Below, in pieces: positions 807-58,955 of a DNA stretch of 64,000 nucleotides. The notes below the pieces were generated by a model. It saw only the letters and a program-made list of their open reading frames with translations, was not told where the DNA came from and did no database searches. The stretch's first letter is position 1; each line of letters opens with the position of its first letter. The DNA comes from Escherichia phage AnnaHegner_Bas87. Location: the sequence record PQ850594.1. The stretch is one strand, 5' to 3'. Both the position numbers and the translations under genes were made by a program.

Positions 807-1610
807 TTGGCTATCGAAACAACTGCAGTAGTTACTACCGACTTAAACCCTCTGTACCCACGGGACAGGGATTATCTTTATGAAGGGGCTGCCCAGATAC
901 GACTGGTCAAACAAGTCTTAATTAACACTTTCCCTAACATCACAGAGCCGGTTCAACTTGATTCGGATTCTTTCAATATCCTAGCAAACAAGGTCTCTTT
1001 TACTGGAGACTCTATGGATGTTGGTGGTTTGATGATCAAAAACTTAACTCCGGGAACAGGAGACAAAGATGCTGTAACCAAGGGTCAGATGGAAGCTTTC
1101 ATGTTAAACTGGATGCAGAATAAACTCTATCGTATTGGAGCTTACTATATCACTGAAGAAGATATCAACCCCGGAGATTCTAGCTCTCTTGGCTTCGGTT
1201 CTTGGGCTAAAGTAACTGGTGTTGTTATGGGTACTGGTGTTGTTAACCCTGACGGTTCGGTTCCTAACGCCCAGCGTGTGGAATTCCAAGCAGGTGGCAC
1301 AGGAGGTCGAGTATTCAACACAATCCGTGCTGACAATATGCCTCTTACTACAATCAATGGTTCCAGTTTTCAAGTTAGTTCTTATTCTCACTCACATAAT
1401 ATCACGATGGGTCGTGGAGATGCTAGCGGTCACAACAGCAGTCCTAATTGGTACAGTCCGGGTGGTGGTTATACTCAGGTAACTGATACTAACACTCACT
1501 CTCACTCGATTACAGGTTCTGTTAGTTTTGGACGTGATGATGTATCGAGACAACCTATCAACACTTTGCCGCCTTTCAGAGCAGCGCATATCTGGAGACG
1601 TATTAGCTAA
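807..1610 (+). CDS. tail fibre / tail-associated structural protein
   Basis: Gly/Ser/Thr-rich with HSHS repeats, in structural block after endolysin; no enzymatic motif. Confidence 0.4.
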   Translation: MAIETTAVVTTDLNPLYPRDRDYLYEGAAQIRLVKQVLINTFPNITEPVQLDSDSFNILANKVSFTGDSMDVGGLMIKNLTPGTGDKDAVTKGQMEAFMLNWMQNKLYRIGAYYITEEDINPGDSSSLGFGSWAKVTGVVMGTGVVNPDGSVPNAQRVEFQAGGTGGRVFNTIRADNMPLTTINGSSFQVSSYSHSHNITMGRGDASGHNSSPNWYSPGGGYTQVTDTNTHSHSITGSVSFGRDDVSRQPINTLPPFRAAHIWRRIS

Positions 1611-11246: not shown

Positions 11247-11255
11247 TAATGTATA
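11247..11255 (+). promoter_or_regulatory. TAATGTATA phage-sigma promoter-like element
   Basis: exact TAATGTATA about 37 nt upstream of the 11292 start codon, followed by AAGGAGA RBS. Confidence 0.5.
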
Positions 11256-33063: not shown

Positions 33064-33275
33064 TAGTAATGTACCTTTCCGCTGATATAGAAACGACCTG
33101 ATTTAAAGTCTTGAGCTTTGTGGATAGTGATCTTATTAATTGTGCTTTCACAACTTAACAAGAACTTCTTATGAGCGCGAGCTTCTTGACGGGTATTCCT
33201 AATACCCATTGACTCTGTACCACTGCTCCAGTGAATACGAACTACCCAACGTCTTTTCATTGTTCCAAACTCCAT
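33063..33275 (-). CDS. small protein, KVYY family member 4
   Basis: NTRQEARAHKKFL...ITIHK ending KVHY. Confidence 0.4.
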   Translation of the reverse strand: MEFGTMKRRWVVRIHWSSGTESMGIRNTRQEARAHKKFLLSCESTINKITIHKAQDFKSGRFYISGKVHY

Positions 33276-33466
33276 TATCTGTCAACCAATTTAGGGACAA
33301 ACTGCATTACACAGACCTGACTACGAGGGAGATTTATTTCACAAGCGGCTCTTCTCGTCTCAATCTTAACGCTAGAATCTGGACCAACGTTAGATATAAA
33401 TACTCCCATAGCAAATGCCCCAACTACAAAACCAATAGCTAAGTAAGTAGCTTTTTCTTCTTTCAT
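33275..33466 (-). CDS. small membrane protein
   Basis: single hydrophobic helix LAIGFVVGAFAMGVFI. Confidence 0.35.
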   Translation of the reverse strand: MKEEKATYLAIGFVVGAFAMGVFISNVGPDSSVKIETRRAACEINLPRSQVCVMQFVPKLVDR

Positions 33467-33471
33467 CTTGG

Positions 33472-34005
33472 TTATACACCTTTAGATGCAACTACCCCAT
33501 TGCTGCCATTGTAACGACCCTTCACTGCATAGGAATCATCACCAGCGTGAGAGTGTTCAAACATAACCATCTGACCAACACGCATCCCAGCACGAACTCG
33601 TAAGCTGTGGTTGTGGGTAACGTTATGGAATTCAAAGGTCAGCTTACTGCTGTTAAACCCTGCATCAGCCCAACCAGCATGTAAGTGGTTCAAACCACAA
33701 CGAGCCATTGAGGAGCGAAGTACAAACAGACTTGAGATGTTATCTGGAAGGTTAAACTCTTCCATTGAGTGCGCTAAGAAGAATTGTCCCGGAGTGATGA
33801 CAATACCATCTTCAGGGATTTTCACCTCTTTCCACTTGAGGTTTTCTTTAGCATCAATGTCAACAATGCCGTCAGCCTGTTCTTCAACAAGGATAGTATC
33901 ACCAATACGGATATCCACACTAGCAGCGTTAACATATTTATGCTCCGCATCTAAAAAGCCATTATCAATAACACTGTGTAATTCTTGAGAACCTAAAAGA
34001 CTCAT
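33472..34005 (-). CDS. dcd: dCTP deaminase / dUTPase-superfamily enzyme
   Basis: HAGWADAGFNS...GMRVGQMV matches the dCTP deaminase G.iDpGf...pGmri.Q pattern. Confidence 0.65.
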   Translation of the reverse strand: MSLLGSQELHSVIDNGFLDAEHKYVNAASVDIRIGDTILVEEQADGIVDIDAKENLKWKEVKIPEDGIVITPGQFFLAHSMEEFNLPDNISSLFVLRSSMARCGLNHLHAGWADAGFNSSKLTFEFHNVTHNHSLRVRAGMRVGQMVMFEHSHAGDDSYAVKGRYNGSNGVVASKGV

Positions 34006-35450
34006 GAGTTTCTGTTTCCTTGTACAGATGATGCCAAATTGTTAATCATGTTACGAGCTGTTTCACGAGTCAGCGTAACACCTGCTAAGTTACTATCAAG
34101 TTCACCAACTAATTCACGAGCTGTTGCTCGGAGTTCTGCACCAAGTGTAGTGTTAGAATGAGCCAGACCATTACGACGACCGACAGGTCGAGGAGTATTG
34201 TTAGCATCATTAGCTAAAGATGCAAAACCAATACGAGCAGCTTCACGAGCGGCTATAGCTGCTACCCGATCTTCCGTAGGGGTTGGCAAATCACCAACTT
34301 CTACACGTTCTATATCACTAGAACGTAGACCCTGAACAACAGAGCTAACTGTTTCCCATGAACGACGGGAGCGCTGCAAATCACCCATAGATGGAGAAGA
34401 AGCAGGTCGAACAGTTACTCCACCTGTATCATGAGTGACGTGCCATGTACGAGTACCCATTCCAGAAGAACGGGCACTACCAAAACTACCAGTGAAAGTA
34501 TCACGAGGTGACTCTGTAGCAGGTGCTGCGAATCTTGTCTGTTGCCAAGAGTCACGTCTGTCAGTTCCCGGAGTCCAAGGCTGCGTAATTGCTTCAGCAC
34601 CTATAGTGGTTAATCCGCTAGACCATTCTGTCTGTAGATTAACTTCCTCGTCCAGATAACTACGACCCCTTTCCTGAGGAATGTTTAATATAGTTTCCAT
34701 CATCTTCAGGGTATAATGACGACGCTGATTCTGATATAAATTTACACCAGCCATAGGTCCAACTAAATCACTAATCAGGTGAACTTCTGGCTCACCGAAA
34801 GCTCCCATTGCAAGGTGCATGTATTCAGTAGAACTGCTATAAACTGCAACAGTTGCTTCAGGCCACTTCTTGTGAACATACTTCATTTCACGACTAGATA
34901 CCACAGGAATGTCACGAGTGTATGACATTGCAAACAAACCTTCGTTTGACACATACAGATTACCAAGAGTCATAAACCCTTGACAGATCATAGGAAAGCG
35001 ACGGCTTAAAGTATCCATATCCAAAGGTAGATTAATCATCATCTGGATTTTAACTTGATCAATCTCAATTTCCAGAATCTCTTGGAAAGTGAAAAGCGCT
35101 TCAGCATAGGTTGTCCCGTTAACAGGCTGAATTAGTCGAGATGTAACCTGAAGCCCCTTACTTTCTGTCCAAGATAAGAAGTTGTCAAGGAATAGTGCAG
35201 CATTACCTACGTTAGCAGGGCTGTTTTCTTGACGAGTGTTCCAACGAAGCCCTCCTTGAACTAGGAAGATATCAACATCATTCGGAGTTCTATTTTGAAA
35301 GAACGTATCACGGATAGCACCACCTGCAATAACAGGATAGATGCCATCAGGGACTACGTTATCTCTGATCAAATTACGAATCAGGTCAAGCCCTACACTG
35401 AGGGCTTCTCCTTCTTGAAGGTTCAATTCAGATAGTGGAATCTTAATCAT
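34002..35450 (-). CDS. Pol-beta-superfamily nucleotidyltransferase (CCA-adding/poly(A) polymerase-like head) with low-complexity C-terminal half
   Basis: PVIAGGAIRDTFF...PNDVDIFLV (GG.xRD plus DxD); C-terminal ~200 aa Ser/Arg/Thr/Gly-rich. Confidence 0.5.
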   Translation of the reverse strand: MIKIPLSELNLQEGEALSVGLDLIRNLIRDNVVPDGIYPVIAGGAIRDTFFQNRTPNDVDIFLVQGGLRWNTRQENSPANVGNAALFLDNFLSWTESKGLQVTSRLIQPVNGTTYAEALFTFQEILEIEIDQVKIQMMINLPLDMDTLSRRFPMICQGFMTLGNLYVSNEGLFAMSYTRDIPVVSSREMKYVHKKWPEATVAVYSSSTEYMHLAMGAFGEPEVHLISDLVGPMAGVNLYQNQRRHYTLKMMETILNIPQERGRSYLDEEVNLQTEWSSGLTTIGAEAITQPWTPGTDRRDSWQQTRFAAPATESPRDTFTGSFGSARSSGMGTRTWHVTHDTGGVTVRPASSPSMGDLQRSRRSWETVSSVVQGLRSSDIERVEVGDLPTPTEDRVAAIAAREAARIGFASLANDANNTPRPVGRRNGLAHSNTTLGAELRATARELVGELDSNLAGVTLTRETARNMINNLASSVQGNRNS

Positions 35451-43859: not shown

Positions 43860-44482
43860 AATGATTCCACCAACTCTACATTATATGATGACAGGTCTGA
43901 AGAAATATGCTTGAACTTCTCCAGAAGGTTTAAAGATTGACGACCATTGTCGCCATAACCAGCTTCAAGAAGCACGTTTCCAACGTAAGCCCCTTTGTAA
44001 TAAACTTTTCCATCGACAGGATTGATATAGATGAAACGAGTAACCAACCCTTCAAACTCTGGATTAAACAGGTTGTACACCAAATCACCCGGAATCGAAC
44101 GTCCGAGAGAAGGTGGAGTACCACGAAGTTTATTCCCCATCAAGCCTTTAGCTCGCTGACGAACAGGGTTGATATGGGTCCAGCTCACCATGTTATTACC
44201 ATGCTGAAGGTATCCTACATCTGGAGACTCCAGAATGAGGCTGTGATCAAACACTGGGATATTACTAACAATCTGACGTTCAAACTGACCTTCGGAGTTT
44301 TTAGTCCAGCGTTCCGCCTCAAACACTAAAGACATTTCAGCGTCGTGTGAGTAGTCGTCAATATCAAAGTTACCTTGCTGACGAACATCAAGCACATATA
44401 GAGGGAGGTTTTTACCATCAGGTGATCGCTGGGCAATCCATGTTCCACAATAATAGTGTTGAAAATCTCTTAACAAGCTCAC
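43856..44482 (-). CDS. hypothetical protein in ligase cluster
   Basis: ORF only; overlaps neighbours by 4 nt. Confidence 0.4.
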   Translation of the reverse strand: MSLLRDFQHYYCGTWIAQRSPDGKNLPLYVLDVRQQGNFDIDDYSHDAEMSLVFEAERWTKNSEGQFERQIVSNIPVFDHSLILESPDVGYLQHGNNMVSWTHINPVRQRAKGLMGNKLRGTPPSLGRSIPGDLVYNLFNPEFEGLVTRFIYINPVDGKVYYKGAYVGNVLLEAGYGDNGRQSLNLLEKFKHISSDLSSYNVELVESL

Positions 44483-44491
44483 AATATCACC

Positions 44492-45298
44492 TTATACAAT
44501 CTGGAGTTTAGAGGAGAATTTATCCGCTTCTTTAACATCGTTACTGTTGATGATGTTGTGAAGCTTTTCAATTGGAAGGCGAGAATGAAGTGACATCAAT
44601 ACTTCCATATCACAGCCTTGAACAACCTTATCAACTTGCTCATAAACAAACTTGCGGGTTGACTTCTCGCCAATCCAGAAGTTAGAAAGAGAACGATATT
44701 CAATACCGTAATCTTTGTAGCGAATGGCAGAAGCCTTTCCGTATAACTCTTTACGACGAGTGTCTTTATCCATGATCACAGCTGGCAAGGACAGGAAGTA
44801 ATCACACAACACACCCAACATCATTTGAGTCTGACGACTAATTTCCAGCGTACCAGTGACGCCAAGGTGAACATGACCGCCAGCAGTACGCAGACCTTTG
44901 TCTGTCGCTACTGGAGATGGGTTTTTCTGACCAGTGAAGGCGTTGAAATCAGGAGTACAACCAAATACAAAAGCTGACGGGTGGAATGATTCAAGCTCTT
45001 CTGAAGTGAACACATGAGAGCTAATCCCAAGCGCTGCTTCCAGACCACGATCATTCAGGATTTTGTTAGTCAGATCAATACCACGCTGAATATTATCATC
45101 AAACGCTTCAAATCCTTTCTGTGGGTTAATATCGAATTCAGCCAGAACGTTGTCTTCTTGAAGACGAACATCAGGGGCCAGATCAATTTTGTTGTCTTTA
45201 GAGCAGCCCAGCTTACCAGCCACAGAGGTGATAATACCAGAAGCAGTACGAACAAACATTTCAGGGTCAGAACCAATAAGGAAAGCACGCTTAGTCAT
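44492..45298 (-). CDS. second amidoligase-like protein (weak)
   Basis: start moved to internal Met (MTKRAFLIGSDPEMF); GSDPEMF acidic strand and GGHVHLGV motif. Confidence 0.4.
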   Translation of the reverse strand: MTKRAFLIGSDPEMFVRTASGIITSVAGKLGCSKDNKIDLAPDVRLQEDNVLAEFDINPQKGFEAFDDNIQRGIDLTNKILNDRGLEAALGISSHVFTSEELESFHPSAFVFGCTPDFNAFTGQKNPSPVATDKGLRTAGGHVHLGVTGTLEISRQTQMMLGVLCDYFLSLPAVIMDKDTRRKELYGKASAIRYKDYGIEYRSLSNFWIGEKSTRKFVYEQVDKVVQGCDMEVLMSLHSRLPIEKLHNIINSNDVKEADKFSSKLQIV

Positions 45299-47841: not shown

Positions 47842-48208
47842 AACTTCTCCTGTTTGTCACATTGATTGGTTAGCCAGTTGTAAGACCCTCTGTTATTCTT
47901 GCTTAACTCGCAAGATGCAAAAGAGTACATCCTGACAAACCCCACAGTGGCTAAGCAAATAAAGATTGCTGCCAATAAGAATTTAGCTTTCAACTTATTA
48001 TCCATACAACCTCTTCTTTGAACTTAAAAAAGGACTCTCATAAGAGAGCCAAGCTTTAAGGCCAATTAAATAGATATCACCCAATATCTGTGGATAACCT
48101 GCTCTTAAAATATTCTATCCGACGGATGTTCGAGGATTATTCCTCTCCCTAGCATCGGCCCCATACGGGAAAGATTAAATTAAGATTAGGTTAGTTGAGC
48201 CAGAATAG

Positions 48209-48246: not shown

Positions 48247-48498
48247 TTACTCTGTATCTCCGTCGAAGCGGAGGATTGCTGTCGGAACAGGAATAACTGC
48301 CATGTCAATCTCTAAACGGAAGAGATGACCTGTGCTCAACTGAACTGCTGTTACCGGCTTAGCGATACCAGCAACAGAGGCAGAAGGGATTCGGATAAAG
48401 AATTCCCCCGGATATTCAACCGAACGAAACACATCTCCCGGTGTCATATCTTTTACTTGAACAGTAGGCTCAGGAGGTGTTTTATTGGAAATTTGCAT
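48247..48498 (-). CDS. small protein, PGDVFR family
   Basis: PGDVFR...G.LFRLE...VIPVP shared with 53775-54005. Confidence 0.45.
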   Translation of the reverse strand: MQISNKTPPEPTVQVKDMTPGDVFRSVEYPGEFFIRIPSASVAGIAKPVTAVQLSTGHLFRLEIDMAVIPVPTAILRFDGDTE

Positions 48499-48758: not shown

Positions 48759-49187
48759 TTAAACAACAAATTGGAACGCTTCGTATCCAAACTTGTATGA
48801 GAAGTCATGCTTGAATTTCACTACACGACCACGATCACGGAAAGATTTCAGACGACTAATAAAGCCAGCCATCGGCTCAGGGTCAATAGGGCTACGAATC
48901 TTCATAGCTACAGAGTGCAGCTTGAAGCGTTTACCAGTGCTACAGGCCATCATCACATACTCCATACGAGTAGTCCAGATGTTGAGCACCATGCTTGTTT
49001 TCTCCGCTGACCAACCAGTCTTGCGGGCGATTTCTTTATGGACATTAAGCTCCAAAGGAAGAGGGAATTGCTTGTTGAATGAAGCCGGATATAGCTTGAC
49101 CAGAAGGTCAATGTTTTCTTTATACGTTAAGTAAGCCAATTTCTTGCTTACGTTAGGGAATTTCCCAGACATTTTTTGAAGCTCCAA
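48759..49187 (-). CDS. ProQ/FinO-domain-like RNA-binding protein
   Basis: KKLAYLTYKE...YPASF...PLPLELNVHKEIA...WTTRMEYV...GKRFKL parallels the ProQ N-terminal domain. Confidence 0.45.
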   Translation of the reverse strand: MELQKMSGKFPNVSKKLAYLTYKENIDLLVKLYPASFNKQFPLPLELNVHKEIARKTGWSAEKTSMVLNIWTTRMEYVMMACSTGKRFKLHSVAMKIRSPIDPEPMAGFISRLKSFRDRGRVVKFKHDFSYKFGYEAFQFVV

Positions 49188-49371: not shown

Positions 49372-49629
49372 TCAATAGAAGGTGTGTGTAGAGTCATCGT
49401 TCATACATAACCAAACGAAGAAGACAATCACACAGAAAGCAATAACACCGAGAACTGCAAGGATTATAGTGTTAGCTAATGTGGTATCTAACACGCTTTG
49501 CAGGTACATAAAGAATTGTACGATACCACATAACCCTAGCACGACCCCAACGACAATGAGGAGCCAATATGTGCAGAGAAGGACTGCATCTAATAGTGAT
49601 ACATACTTTGGATGATCTTTATGTCTCAC
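49372..49629 (-). CDS. small multi-pass membrane protein
   Basis: three hydrophobic segments. Confidence 0.4.
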   Translation of the reverse strand: MRHKDHPKYVSLLDAVLLCTYWLLIVVGVVLGLCGIVQFFMYLQSVLDTTLANTIILAVLGVIAFCVIVFFVWLCMNDDSTHTFY

Positions 49630-49885
49630 TGATCTTTTCCACTAAATCCAGAGTTGCTGATTCAAATACAACACCAACTACCATATTAGGTGCCATATTA
49701 CGAACGTATCCGCTCTGCATAGACACGGCCCGAGAGTATTCAGAACCGTTAGAACTTTTGTTTACCTTCATGTAAAGGGTTTGCTCTTTATCTTCTTTCA
49801 GAGTAAAGAAAGAGCCGGGAAGAAGCCTCTGAACAGTCAGAGGGATATCTGCAACATGAGTCTTATTGATAGTAAGAACTGTCAT
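49619..49885 (-). CDS. small protein, PGDVFR-family-like
   Basis: LLPGSFFTLKEDKEQTLYMKV resembles the family N-terminus. Confidence 0.35.
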   Translation of the reverse strand: MTVLTINKTHVADIPLTVQRLLPGSFFTLKEDKEQTLYMKVNKSSNGSEYSRAVSMQSGYVRNMAPNMVVGVVFESATLDLVEKISET

Positions 49886-49888
49886 TGC

Positions 49889-50143
49889 TTATTCCTTAAT
49901 AGTTGCTTCAGCTTTAATAGGAATAACAGCAACATCTTTACGAGGTGCGGTCGCTCGACCTGTGTTAAGGCAGGCTACAAGTCTGTGCTCATCCGCACCT
50001 TTAATACACAGTCGAGTTGAGAACTCGGTAGATAGTAAGATGTACAAATCGTCATCTTCACTGTTAGGATACATGAAGCAATCCCCAAGACGCAGAGCGC
50101 TGAGTGGTATTGCGTTCTTACTGGCTGGTTTATTAACTTTCAT
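49889..50143 (-). CDS. small protein, PGDVFR-family-like
   Basis: LRLGDCFMY...VAVIPIKAEA. Confidence 0.35.
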   Translation of the reverse strand: MKVNKPASKNAIPLSALRLGDCFMYPNSEDDDLYILLSTEFSTRLCIKGADEHRLVACLNTGRATAPRKDVAVIPIKAEATIKE

Positions 50144-50419
50144 TTTACCACCTTTAGTTATGGACCAATTTATGAGAGAACTCTCGGAAGAATGCTTTCA
50201 TAAATAGGGGGAGGGGACGAATCCTCCCATATCCTATTAATTAATGTTGCATGTAAGACCTAACAATCCGATGCTGTAGTGGATAGCGTAAAACGCTTAC
50301 CGGCATTAAACCCAGCCCATGAGGGGCTTATGTGATTAAAATGCTCAACATTGAGCGGTTAGTTGATAGGAGATCTGAAGTCCTATCTCAAAGGACTCTC
50401 GTAAGAATCCTTCACGATA

Positions 50420-51384: not shown

Positions 51385-51460
51385 TGGTGCACCCTACAGG
51401 ATTCGAACCTGTAACCAACGACTTAGAAGGTCGCTGCTCTATCCATTGAGCTAAGGGTGC
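51385..51460 (-). tRNA. tRNA-Arg (anticodon UCU), with encoded CCA
   Basis: cloverleaf folded by hand: 7 bp acceptor stem GCACCCT/AGGGTGC, D-arm GCTC/GAGC, anticodon loop CUUCUAA, T-arm ACAGG-TTCGAAT-CCTGT. Confidence 0.85.
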
Positions 51461-55055: not shown

Positions 55056-55107
55056 AAGTAGCTGGGCCGTTGTTATCAGAACTTACTACCCCCTTGTTTT
55101 ACGGGCA

Positions 55108-55134
55108 TAAAAAAGCCCCATCCGAAGACGGGGC
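55108..55134 (-). terminator. rho-independent terminator (minus strand)
   Basis: GCCCCG-loop-TGGGGC hairpin followed on minus strand by TTTTTTAT. Confidence 0.5.
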
Positions 55135-55373
55135 GACCTGAAAGAGTGAACATGACCTCACTCATTTAAGAATCCTCGTAAAGACTCTTAAAAAAGAGGC
55201 CTCGTTAAAGGCCCGGTCAAATGACCATCCAATAGGGATTGAACCATGCCAATGATTCACAAAGGGAGTTCCCTTTAGGCATCACTAGCTACGCAAAAAG
55301 CCGCACAAAGGCGGCAGACAAAAAGACGCTCAAGAAGAGCGTCATAGTAGTTGACCACTGGTACAGAAGGGGC

Positions 55374-55817
55374 TTACTTAACTCTTGCTGTTTTGATTGG
55401 GTCAATATATTTTTCAACTCCCCATTTATGTTTACTATCAGCGTAGAAAACATCTGGTGCACATTGGCTAGTAGTAGGAAATGCTTTCGGTGGCTTAGTG
55501 CTACCTTTATTCTTCTGCTTACCTTTAGTGCGACCATTACAGAAGATTTCTAAACGTTTCTCTTCTTCTGTTTTCGCTGCACCGTTGGTTAACAAGGAAC
55601 GCTTATGATCAGCAAGAAGAAGCGCATCAGCACGGTGAACACGACGACCTAACACCTTCGCTACGGTAGAAGGTTTATGTTCTTGAGCGGCTTGTTTGAT
55701 AGCTCTTCGTTTAAGGCTACGTTTGCTAATATGGTTAACAGCGGCTGGCTTTTCTTTTTCCAGCTCACTCATAGAGAACACTCGTCCGCCTTTCATGCTG
55801 ATTTTAGATTTAGCCAT
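55374..55817 (-). CDS. hypothetical basic protein
   Basis: Lys/Arg-rich 147 aa ORF. Confidence 0.4.
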   Translation of the reverse strand: MAKSKISMKGGRVFSMSELEKEKPAAVNHISKRSLKRRAIKQAAQEHKPSTVAKVLGRRVHRADALLLADHKRSLLTNGAAKTEEEKRLEIFCNGRTKGKQKNKGSTKPPKAFPTTSQCAPDVFYADSKHKWGVEKYIDPIKTARVK

Positions 55818-56646: not shown

Positions 56647-57558
56647 TTATGCTGCCAGTTGACGCGCTGCCATAATCTCAGCGGCCTTGCGCAATACTTC
56701 TTCCTCTTCCTGCGCAGCTTTCTCGTTAGCTTTAACAGTCGAGGCGTTTGAGATACGACCGCGAAGGTTAGATAATTTCTCAGTCATTTCGTTGATCGCC
56801 TTTTCCATTTCATCAGCGTATGAGTCCAGAGATTCAAGCTCTTTAGTCGAGGCATTAATCAGGTAGTCATCGCTGATAGAAACAGTTGAAGCGGTTACTT
56901 TCTTAAGGAGTGAATCGAAAGTTTTCTTAACTTTGCCTACTTCTTCACTCAATGCGATAGTATTGTCAGAAGATGCGCCGTTGCGTTCATCTGCCAGTAG
57001 TGCCGCTTCAATACGGATTGCAGCCAGACGGTCAACCAGTGCATAAATATCCTGATTAAAGTTTTCGTTAACCTTCTGGTTGATCTGGTTTGCTACCGGA
57101 ACGTTGTCGTTGCAACCTTTGTAGAATGCTGGGTTATCAACCTGCACGTCTTCACCTTTAGCAAAGCGTTCAAAGGAATTAGACCAGCGGGCGCGGTTTT
57201 GTTCCATTTTGGCCTTAACTTGTTCCGGTTTAGCATCCTCTTTCGCTTTCGCTTCACCTTCCAGATTAATCCATTTCTTTTTACCGTTCGCCCCGTCGCT
57301 GTTGTACTTGATCGGGGTTAAGAAAGAGATGGCAACCGCAATCACGTCTAAGTCACGATAACGCTCAGTTAACAAGAAATCAACCGCCGCCTGCAATACA
57401 TCCAGTTTCTTACCGTTGGTGCGGAAGTGCTGCAAATGGCCTAACAGGAAGTTAGAAACATCTTGTTTGATTGCCGCGTTGTTGCTACGAATGTTGTTAG
57501 CCAGTGCATTAAAGCCGGATTCGTTAACCAGATTAAAAACTTTAGCCATGATATTCAC
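56647..57558 (-). CDS. hypothetical protein, first long ORF after the ORF-free leader
   Basis: 303 aa; Ala/Lys/Glu-rich helical composition. Confidence 0.45.
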   Translation of the reverse strand: MNIMAKVFNLVNESGFNALANNIRSNNAAIKQDVSNFLLGHLQHFRTNGKKLDVLQAAVDFLLTERYRDLDVIAVAISFLTPIKYNSDGANGKKKWINLEGEAKAKEDAKPEQVKAKMEQNRARWSNSFERFAKGEDVQVDNPAFYKGCNDNVPVANQINQKVNENFNQDIYALVDRLAAIRIEAALLADERNGASSDNTIALSEEVGKVKKTFDSLLKKVTASTVSISDDYLINASTKELESLDSYADEMEKAINEMTEKLSNLRGRISNASTVKANEKAAQEEEEVLRKAAEIMAARQLAA

Positions 57559-57616
57559 CTTTCAATTGTAAGGGCACTATGCCCCGCTCTCTATGAGCTT
57601 TTTAAGTCACTATTGA

Positions 57617-57656
57617 CTTATCAATAATCACTCAATATCAAGTAATTATTGATAAG
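57617..57656. promoter_or_regulatory. perfect 12 bp inverted repeat, operator-like
   Basis: CTTATCAATAAT-16 nt-ATTATTGATAAG about 60-100 nt upstream of the 57558 start. Confidence 0.4.
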
Positions 57657-58468
57657 CGAGGCGGTCTTATCAGGAGTTAACCTTGCCGCCTCCTTATCCG
57701 TGATGTTTCATCTGGTATCTTTAATTAGTCGCTATAAATAAAGCCGACCTGATAGCGATGATCAATCATCACAATAAGGCAGTGCGTCCGACTCTATTTA
57801 ATTACTTTATCGTAACCGTCGGCAATATCGTCTACTTTGCTTTCGCTCCCGCCTATCCTTTTGTACTAACTCTCAATCGCTAACCATCGCCCACTACGGG
57901 AGGTTATTGCGAAAGAGTCATTAGCCGTCTAATACATTGACGTTTTATATCTTTCAGCAGGTTTACTACATAAACTGATTATGTACGCCATCAATAGTGG
58001 CCTCAAATCATTCACATCGTAAACGTTCACACTAAACCTTTTTGTTAAATAGCAATTTGCCACTTTTTAACCATTCACCGCCGCCCCCAATTGGGCGTTA
58101 ATTCGTCGGATTTGCCTACCCTGATAAACTTCTTTCACTGTAGCACCTTGTTAGCGATGGCCGCCGCTACCCTTTAACCGTGGGCGATTAGTTTAGGCCG
58201 TTGCGTGTACTCAATGAATCCGTTTTATCAGTGGTGACGTTTCCAGTTAAGGGATTGTAAAAACTGTTTACCCTGATAATTTAGGGAGTCTTACGCCGTT
58301 TTATCTGGTATGTTTTCCGATGGTTATTATCATCCAACATATTCAACCGATATAGGAGAATGTTTAAATTGTTAAAGAGCGGTAAATCTATCAGTGTGCT
58401 TTCTCACACTATGCAACTGTTAGCCGTTGTTACGCTTTTCTTAAGCGGTGAATTGCTTAAGTGTGCTC

Positions 58469-58497
58469 ATTATGAATCATGCTGTTTTAGCTGTCAA
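58469..58497 (-). promoter_or_regulatory. sigma-70-like promoter (TTGACA-17 bp-CATAAT), leftward
   Basis: on minus strand TTGACA at 58492-58497 and CATAAT at 58469-58474; part of a 38 bp repeat. Confidence 0.45.
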
Positions 58498-58955
58498 CCG
58501 CTTTTTTAATCTTTTTCGTCGTTCCCGCTGTTGGGAAGATATATCAACCAGCTTTGTTTGATTGAAGATTAAGCGGTAAGGCTTAACTTATGATTCATAT
58601 TTTTAAAGAGCGGTGAAGCATTTACAGCTTAACACATCGTGTTAGCTTGTCAACTCTTTTTATCATCTTCTTTTATTCTATTCCCTTATCTCGCTTGAAT
58701 CTTTGCGAAAGGGCAAGATGATAAGTCTGATTTGTCTTTTAGGAATCTAGTGCGCTTTCAAGCATCGACCATTTGAAAGTATCGAACAAATGAGGCTTAT
58801 TTTGTTGCTCATCGTCCGCCTGTTTCACGTATGAATCAGGAATCAATTCTAGTGGTCAACTAAGCGCCTTATAGTAATGACGTCGCCGCCACCTGTAAGA
58901 CAAATCATATTTTTAAAGAGCGGGGATATTTTAAGTCATCGCTGACTGAGTGCTT

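Follow-up and report, generated by a model that had tools for sequence, protein, structure and literature searches.

Three major classes of bacterial RNA chaperones are recognised, and the FinO/ProQ proteins are one of them. A preliminary description of the genome of Escherichia phage AnnaHegner_Bas87 (PQ850594.1) assigned an open reading frame to this family on the basis of short sequence motifs, placed it in the early region and suggested that its product could remodel the stability of host or phage RNA early in infection. Is this a genuine gene, does its product belong to the FinO/ProQ family, and what could such a protein do in a lytic phage? The window that we analysed is a stretch of 64,000 nucleotides, which corresponds to a phiEco32-like podophage of the genus Suseptimavirus (Gordonclarkvirinae); unless otherwise stated, positions are those of this window.

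A selected coding gene on the minus strand

The minus-strand open reading frame initially reported at 48759-49187 is real; its upper limit is an in-frame TTG located upstream of the likely start, and the frame extended to this codon would encode 142 amino acids. The ATG at 49172 is the likely start since it is preceded by a GGAG motif at 49185-49182 and since the same 414-nt coding sequence is annotated in phages Bas86, SU7, ECBP2 and MLP3 (Table 1). In phage OliverMaurmann_Bas86, the gene is Bas86_0087, identical at both the DNA and the protein level, and its product is given in GenBank as a hypothetical protein. The predicted protein of 16 kDa is strongly basic, with a pI of 10.0 and 24 Lys and Arg residues versus 11 Asp and Glu.

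When the gene was compared with its counterparts in SU7, ECBP2 and MLP3, we observed 11-23 synonymous and 4-6 non-synonymous differences, which correspond to a dN/dS of 0.06-0.11. This ratio indicates that the minus-strand frame is under purifying selection and is a real coding gene. Residue 2 aside, V44I is the sole change before residue 105 in these comparisons, the others being located in the C-terminal helices. Two plus-strand open reading frames that overlap the gene (48793-49134 and 48807-49010) were rejected, since selection acts on the minus-strand frame. No second FinO-like open reading frame was found in the 64-kb window.

Table 1. Features of the FinO-like locus and its surroundings. 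Positions are those of the window, except for the further copies of the structured element.
Feature	Position	Strand	Description
FinO/ProQ-domain coding sequence	48759-49172	minus	414 nt, 137 aa; ATG at 49172, stop codon TAA at 48759-48761
Predicted FinO-domain core	48882-49133	minus	Residues ~14-97; Pfam match, profile versus PDB, AlphaFold2, Foldseek
C-terminal extension	48762-48881	minus	Residues 98-137; within-genus amino-acid changes cluster here
Shine-Dalgarno sequence, GGAG	49182-49185	minus	9 nt 5' of the ATG; ribosome-binding site annotated at the equivalent SU7 site; invariant in 4 phages
Terminator-like hairpin	48033-48050	minus	7 bp followed by CTTTTTT, 3' of the next two small genes; consensus match only
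Small flanking open reading frame	48247-48498	minus	83 aa
Small flanking open reading frame	49619-49885	minus	88 aa
Small flanking open reading frame	49889-50143	minus	84 aa
Candidate structured noncoding element	50199-50419	minus	~220 nt, ~1 kb upstream of the FinO-like gene; covariation support
Further copies of the element	L007 4448-4687	minus	
	L012 4292-4429		
	L025 5280-5494	minus	
	L013-L016 ~1183-1380		
tRNA-Arg(TCT)	51385-51460	minus	Inside the early block; conserved in phiEco32, SU7 and Bas86
Noncoding gap	55056-55373	minus	~320 nt, after a 147-aa open reading frame (55374-55817); terminator-like hairpins by scan at 55343-55325, 55315-55300, 55214-55197 and 55134-55115, and one more by eye near 55270

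The protein belongs to the FinO/ProQ family

The preliminary description had proposed a search against the ProQ_FinO profile, and would have taken the lack of a significant match as a refutation of its assignment; the search does not refute it. By itself, the protein matches this profile (Pfam PF04352) with E = 1e-5 and 25.9 bits, residues 18-87 being aligned with profile positions 5-78 of 109, though the score falls 1.1 bits short of the 27-bit gathering cutoff. For the 98%-identical cluster representative, PF04352.19 is listed in a precomputed table. No Pfam domain besides PF04352 was found in the 137-aa protein, and matches to Ribosomal_L31 and DUF7343 (Pfam) and to L31 (NCBIfam) were dismissed as sub-threshold noise. 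Pairwise BLASTP against the N-terminal domain of E. coli ProQ was not significant, and a single-sequence phmmer search of the PDB returned no FinO-domain match, only a chance match to a mannosidase (E = 1.3).

A word-indexed homologue search retrieved the near-identical cluster only, and 9 proteins when a profile was used. The clade studied here came from an exhaustive HMMER search of 1.84 billion representatives, which yielded 43 relatives; the clade alignment contains the query and 38 relatives (n = 39), and all 39 match PF04352. With the clade profile, we detected in the PDB the N-terminal domain of ProQ (5nb9, E = 1.7e-14, 57 bits), RocC (7rgu, 7rgt and 7rgs, E ~1e-11), FinO (1dvo, E = 4.5e-10), Lpp1663 (6s10, E = 3.6e-9) and NMB1681 (3mw6, E = 3e-6); nothing matched besides these five proteins. 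Taken together, the searches show that the resemblance to ProQ is visible at the profile level only, where it goes well beyond chance.

An AlphaFold2 model built on the clade alignment had a pLDDT of 93.1 and a pTM of 0.86. When this model was compared with the PDB by Foldseek, the top 26 matches were all FinO-domain chains (TM on target 0.5-0.7) and the next match had E = 0.77; in BFVD, the matches were phage ProQ/FinO proteins. Based on the PF04352 matches of the whole clade, on the matches of its profile in the PDB and on the predicted fold, membership in the FinO/ProQ family is secure at the level of both fold and homology. The assignment first made from motifs is thus supported by a clade profile that finds five solved FinO-domain proteins and by a predicted fold that matches FinO-domain structures only. 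The motifs themselves were partly exact: LAYL (residues 12-15) and YPASF (28-32) are present, but PLxLxI, WT..Y and G.R.DL read PLELNV (39-44), WTTRMEY (66-72) and GKRFKL (80-85), respectively.

The domain call is not new, since automatic UniProt annotation already has it: UniRef and BFVD name the Suseptimavirus orthologues (SU7, 98% identical) 'ProQ/FinO domain-containing protein'. Some homologues were labelled 'ProQ RNA chaperone' or 'sRNA-binding protein' by their depositors, and the FinO-like PHROGs 18901, 35316, 21591 and 30855 are labelled 'unknown function'. The existence of phage-encoded FinO/ProQ homologues has been noted in reviews (PMC9977716). In a literature search, we did not find a functional study of a phage FinO/ProQ homologue, and the gene is unmentioned in the BASEL paper. 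The protein can be regarded as a new, divergent but otherwise ordinary representative of a known family.

The 3'-end pocket is kept and the basic residues of helix 3 are replaced

The core of the AlphaFold2 model consists of helices 10-27, 44-52, 56-68 and 70-79 and of a beta-hairpin (81-83/93-95). The following helix, 98-110, is the counterpart of the last helix in FinO domains. A further helix, 114-128, which is modelled confidently, and an aromatic motif (F120/F124/F128/F133) are specific to the clade, where they occur in about 23-30 of the 39 homologues. The linker and the Tudor-like domain of ProQ are absent, leaving one domain and two C-terminal helices.

Residue equivalences were derived from the HMM alignment and from the published RocC-RocR structure and ProQ mutagenesis (PMC9674577, PMC10168233). 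The 3'-nucleotide pocket is kept: Tyr72 (Y87 in RocC, Y70 in ProQ) and Arg82 (R97 in RocC, R80 in ProQ) were found in 38/38 clade sequences, and their counterparts in both proteins are essential for RNA binding (PMC9674577, PMC10168233). Thr67 (RocC T82) is also kept, as is the helix N-cap Ser55, equivalent to RocC S70, which reads consecutive phosphates; this position is Ser or Thr in 29 of the 39 clade members. On helix 3, whose basic residues hold the hairpin duplex in ProQ and RocC, K54, R58 and R62 of ProQ are replaced by Ala56, Ser60 and Asn64, and a Lys or Arg is present at these positions in 8/39, 6/39 and 14/39 clade members, respectively. Ser60 is the counterpart of RocC R75, a residue about 80% conserved family-wide, whose replacement by Asp costs more than 100-fold in affinity (PMC9674577), and of ProQ R58, which none of seven RNAs tested could do without and whose replacement by Ala abolishes binding (PMC10168233). 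At the beta-turn, the near-universal, pocket-shaping Gly (RocC G52) is Asn43 here and Gly in 35 of the 39 clade members. An Asn residue, which often tolerates such a turn geometry, may do so here. Conserved basic positions peculiar to the clade are K18, K34 and the invariant R69, and Trp66 is likewise invariant. Since the basic residues of helix 3 are absent and a C-terminal helix has been added, duplex recognition, and hence the target range, probably differs from that of host ProQ.

The replacement of essential RNA-binding residues (R58/R75 and their neighbours) by small or neutral ones could be read in another way, namely that the FinO fold has been kept while RNA binding has been lost or has become secondary, and that the protein acts through protein-protein contacts, for which a ribonuclease, poly(A) polymerase or the ribosome would be conceivable partners. 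The clade-specific C-terminal helix, with its conserved aromatic face, could then be a protein interface. However, the buried Tyr and Arg of the pocket do not vary within the clade, although its members are only about 25-40% identical, the protein is strongly basic, and we know of no FinO domain that fails to bind RNA; we consider this reading very improbable.

Comparison with characterised FinO-domain proteins

According to the model, the architecture is closest to that of the minimal ProQ of Neisseria meningitidis, NMB1681 (3MW6). Like the phage protein, NMB1681 consists of a FinO domain by itself, which is flanked by short extensions but by neither linker nor Tudor-like domain, and its fold is the same (Foldseek TM on target up to 0.68) for an identity of only 18-24%. 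In contrast, NMB1681 is chromosomal and is a global RNA binder, and an additional C-terminal helix distinguishes the phage protein, which is also devoid of the conserved N-cap arginine.

The best structural match (E ~5e-4) was obtained with the FinO domain of RocC from Legionella pneumophila in complex with the RocR terminator (7RGU). K73 and R84 of RocC are kept as K58 and R69, in addition to Y87, R97, T82 and S70 (Y72, R82, T67 and S55 here), whereas R75, K71 and G52 are changed to S60, A56 and N43. RocC also carries a long C-terminal region, and it serves one dedicated sRNA. The N-terminal domain of E. coli ProQ (5NB9) is the best sequence-profile match; its Y70 and R80 are kept as Y72 and R82, whereas K54, R58, R62 and K35 correspond to A56, S60, N64 and E41, and ProQ, with 232 amino acids, carries the linker and the Tudor-like domain.

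Plasmid FinO (1DVO) and FopA resemble the Bas87 protein in that a FinO domain is encoded on a mobile genetic element. However, FinO extends into long helices at both its N and its C terminus and acts with FinP, an antisense RNA encoded in cis, and no such partner was found next to the Bas87 gene. The phage FinO-like proteins of PHROGs 18901 and 35316, which include gp122 of Salmonella phage 7-11, belong to the same clade and have the same invariant residues; those of the 7-11 type carry an extra domain of about 100 amino acids and several lie beside Prs/NamPT genes, both of which are absent in Bas87.

The clade is found in virulent phages

Outside the genus, tblastn detected homologues (28-41% local identity) exclusively in virulent phages of Enterobacterales and relatives, namely Erwinia Kolesnikvirus, Salmonella Moazamivirus (7-11), Aeromonas Lahexavirus and Shewanella phage KASIA. 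Apart from phage records, the clade was seen only in metagenomic contigs that lack annotation and reach about 100 kb; a tblastn search of plasmids gave no match, and no FinO-like gene was found by tblastn in the sister genus Kuravirus.

The extra C-terminal domain of the 7-11-type homologues (L002 2983-3684; P0014, P0015, P0018, P0027 and P0030) contains a conserved GNHPF(R/V)DG motif and has no Pfam match; the layout loosely recalls that of the ProQ N-terminal domain plus C-terminal domain. Besides gp122, a more distant protein with the FinO fold (G0X575, 125 aa) seems to be present in phage 7-11, and Cronobacter phage GAP52 encodes the FinO-fold protein K4F7Y7 (144 aa); both are 'uncharacterized' in BFVD. 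In phage 7-11 (L002), Erwinia phage Pistou (L003), L011 and L012, the FinO-like gene lies one or two genes away from genes for PRPP synthetase and for NamPT/NAPRTase-family proteins (NAD-salvage type). The order of these genes varies between lineages, and no such neighbours are present in the Bas87 window. This linkage could be due to functional coupling or to block transfer.

The gene lies within a block classed as early

The 2-kb surroundings of the gene match about 21 Suseptimavirus genomes at 89-95% identity, 21 records covering at least 80% of the region. Close copies of the gene (at least 95% identical) were detected by tblastn in about 21 records only, and all of the ~21 relatives that cover the region carry it. 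Given these two counts, the gene looks like a genus-level accessory, outside the subfamily core. It sits in a run of small same-strand open reading frames of unknown function, between the homologues of phi32_93 and phi32_94; in phiEco32, these two genes adjoin, with a 106-bp gap. The block that contains them is classed as early (sigma70-dependent) in SU10 and phiEco32 (PMC4281155, PMC8948821, PMC12276001), and it is this synteny that supports the location of the gene in the early region, as initially described.

The consensus of the gp36-type (middle/late) promoters is absent from the transcribed strand between 44 and 64 kb, and exact matches to the gp36-type TAATGTATA were found only at 11247, 21175, 21246 and 27525 of the window. 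A match with one mismatch inside the gene (49121-49129) is at chance level. Between 46 and 56 kb, we found 9 sigma70-like promoter matches versus 19.5 expected by chance, and no promoter was assigned. In the 69-nt leader that precedes the gene, a hairpin that could have served as attenuator or terminator was also rejected, being no more stable than shuffles (z = -0.14); the leader sequence is 97% conserved.

At the place equivalent to the terminator-like hairpin at 48033-48050, a terminator is annotated in SU7; this hairpin probably ends a local transcription unit that includes the FinO-like gene. Over the 46-56 kb region, 15 terminator-like hairpins were found versus 6.7 ± 2.7 expected, 11 of them on the transcribed strand, and these enriched hairpins are possible ligands of the protein. 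An Rfam scan of the window detected no family except tRNA, and no convincing antisense promoter-terminator pair was found near the gene.

Several other features were observed in this region and its surroundings. The three small open reading frames that flank the gene (Table 1) appear to be paralogous and cross-match PHROGs 6570, 12612 and 7832, all of unknown function. The early block also contains a tRNA gene. Further upstream, a noncoding gap with several terminator-like hairpins (Table 1) may be the counterpart of the spacer with early promoters and terminators known from SU10 and phiEco32, or it may encode short RNAs. In Bas86, the COOH.NH2 ligase gene (57409-58717 of that genome; window ~43990-45298) is annotated as two joined pieces around an HNH endonuclease open reading frame, and so is the Rz-like spanin gene (33217-34109), an arrangement that suggests intron-like insertions; no group I or group II intron was found in the window with Rfam at the gathering threshold.

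The position of the gene also raises the question of a role in host takeover or anti-defence, in which the protein would compete with host ProQ, or replace it, at the 3' ends of host RNAs. For example, labile ProQ-dependent type I antitoxin sRNAs would be kept alive after the shut-off of sigma70 transcription, so that no toxin-mediated abortive infection follows, or host RNAs would be diverted from ProQ. The diverse early block is thought to hold host-takeover genes (PMC8948821) and phiEco32-like phages shut off sigma70 transcription via gp79 (PMC12276001); the proximity of PRPP-synthetase and NamPT-family genes in relatives and the restriction of the clade to phage records and metagenomic contigs are consistent with such a role. 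However, the link to host RNA or to defence is wholly inferential, the gene was not found in Kuravirus, a sister genus on the same hosts, and the Prs/NamPT linkage may reflect the transfer of a gene block and not a shared function. We regard a takeover role of this kind as improbable.

A conserved candidate structured RNA upstream of the gene

The noncoding element located upstream of the FinO-like gene (Table 1) was found in 155 phage records distributed over Suseptimavirus, Kuravirus and the unrelated N4-like Gamaleyavirus, with an identity of at least 97% in most Suseptimavirus and of 68-82% in the two other genera. It was also detectable in phage 7-11 and in one metagenomic contig. The element matched neither Rfam, tRNAs nor the E. 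coli genome, and it is unannotated in all records that carry it. In its 5' hairpin, 95% of cells are paired and 8 of the 16 pairs show compensatory changes, a result reached by 0/500 shuffles. An alternative hairpin, mutually exclusive with the former, is 98.9% paired, with compensatory changes in 3 of its 7 pairs. The element is closed by an invariant CUAAC...GUUAG helix, and its 3' hairpin, which also covaries, carries the conserved loop UCGUCC. From this covariation, we propose the element as a candidate for a new structured phage RNA motif, which is possibly a switch and a possible ligand of the FinO-like protein.

The protein could be the dedicated partner of one structured phage RNA, in the manner of FinO/FinP, FopA/Inc or RocC/RocR; it would stabilise this RNA or favour its pairing and so control a phage gene, for example in the early-to-middle switch, instead of acting globally. 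Characterised FinO-domain proteins of mobile elements act with only one or two RNAs each (PMC9977716, PMC9674577), the loss of generic duplex-binding basic residues fits a specialised recognition, and the element, which has the same orientation as the gene, is also found upstream of the FinO-like genes of L012 and phage 7-11. However, since it is also present in Kuravirus and Gamaleyavirus, where tblastn did not find a FinO-like gene, the element appears to be independent of the protein. In addition, no antisense transcript signals were found near the gene, and the 3' hairpin of the element is not followed by a clean U-tract. On balance, a single dedicated RNA partner seems rather unlikely to us.

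Proposed role in infection

The reading that we favour, and that we consider reasonably probable, is that Bas87 expresses from its early block a single-domain member of the FinO/ProQ family, which binds RNA 3' ends and stabilises RNAs in infection. To our knowledge, every characterised FinO domain binds RNA 3' ends that have a hairpin and a free 3'-OH tail. The gene would be transcribed by the host RNA polymerase within the early block of a virulent Suseptimavirus and, by analogy with ProQ, RocC, FinO and NMB1681, its product would clamp the 3'-OH end of RNAs terminated by a hairpin and a short pyrimidine tail, ends of the type that intrinsic terminators yield. The most likely consequence would be the protection or stabilisation of a set of RNAs in infection, either phage early transcripts or a dedicated phage RNA, which would be kept from attack by 3' exonucleases and from polyadenylation; antisense pairing might be aided by the protein as well. 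Indeed, ProQ protects RNA 3' ends (PMC12086684). By the same analogy, the remodelling of RNA stability early in infection, as put forward in the preliminary description, is a reasonable idea, slightly weakened by the fact that three duplex-contact residues of ProQ are missing.

A bolder proposal is that virulent enterobacterial phages have their own FinO clade, in which the duplex-reading surface has been rebuilt, by loss of the helix-3 arginine ladder and gain of a C-terminal helix and of new conserved lysines, for early takeover or anti-defence at RNA 3' ends. Such a protein would shield phage transcripts from poly(A)-dependent decay or keep host antitoxin sRNAs after the shut-off, and it might cooperate with the conserved structured RNA upstream. 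We put this proposal forward tentatively and believe it to be on the unlikely side.

What is known so far amounts to a correct domain call on a hypothetical protein. An altered RNA-binding surface or a phage-specific role, if true, would add to the interest of the protein. Since Bas86, which has the same gene, is part of the public BASEL reference collection, the gene appears to be experimentally accessible. The protein is a natural variant in which the 3'-end pocket has been kept and the arginine essential in ProQ and RocC is missing, and it could help to understand what determines the specificity of FinO domains and whether the metabolism of RNA 3' ends is a target of lytic phages.
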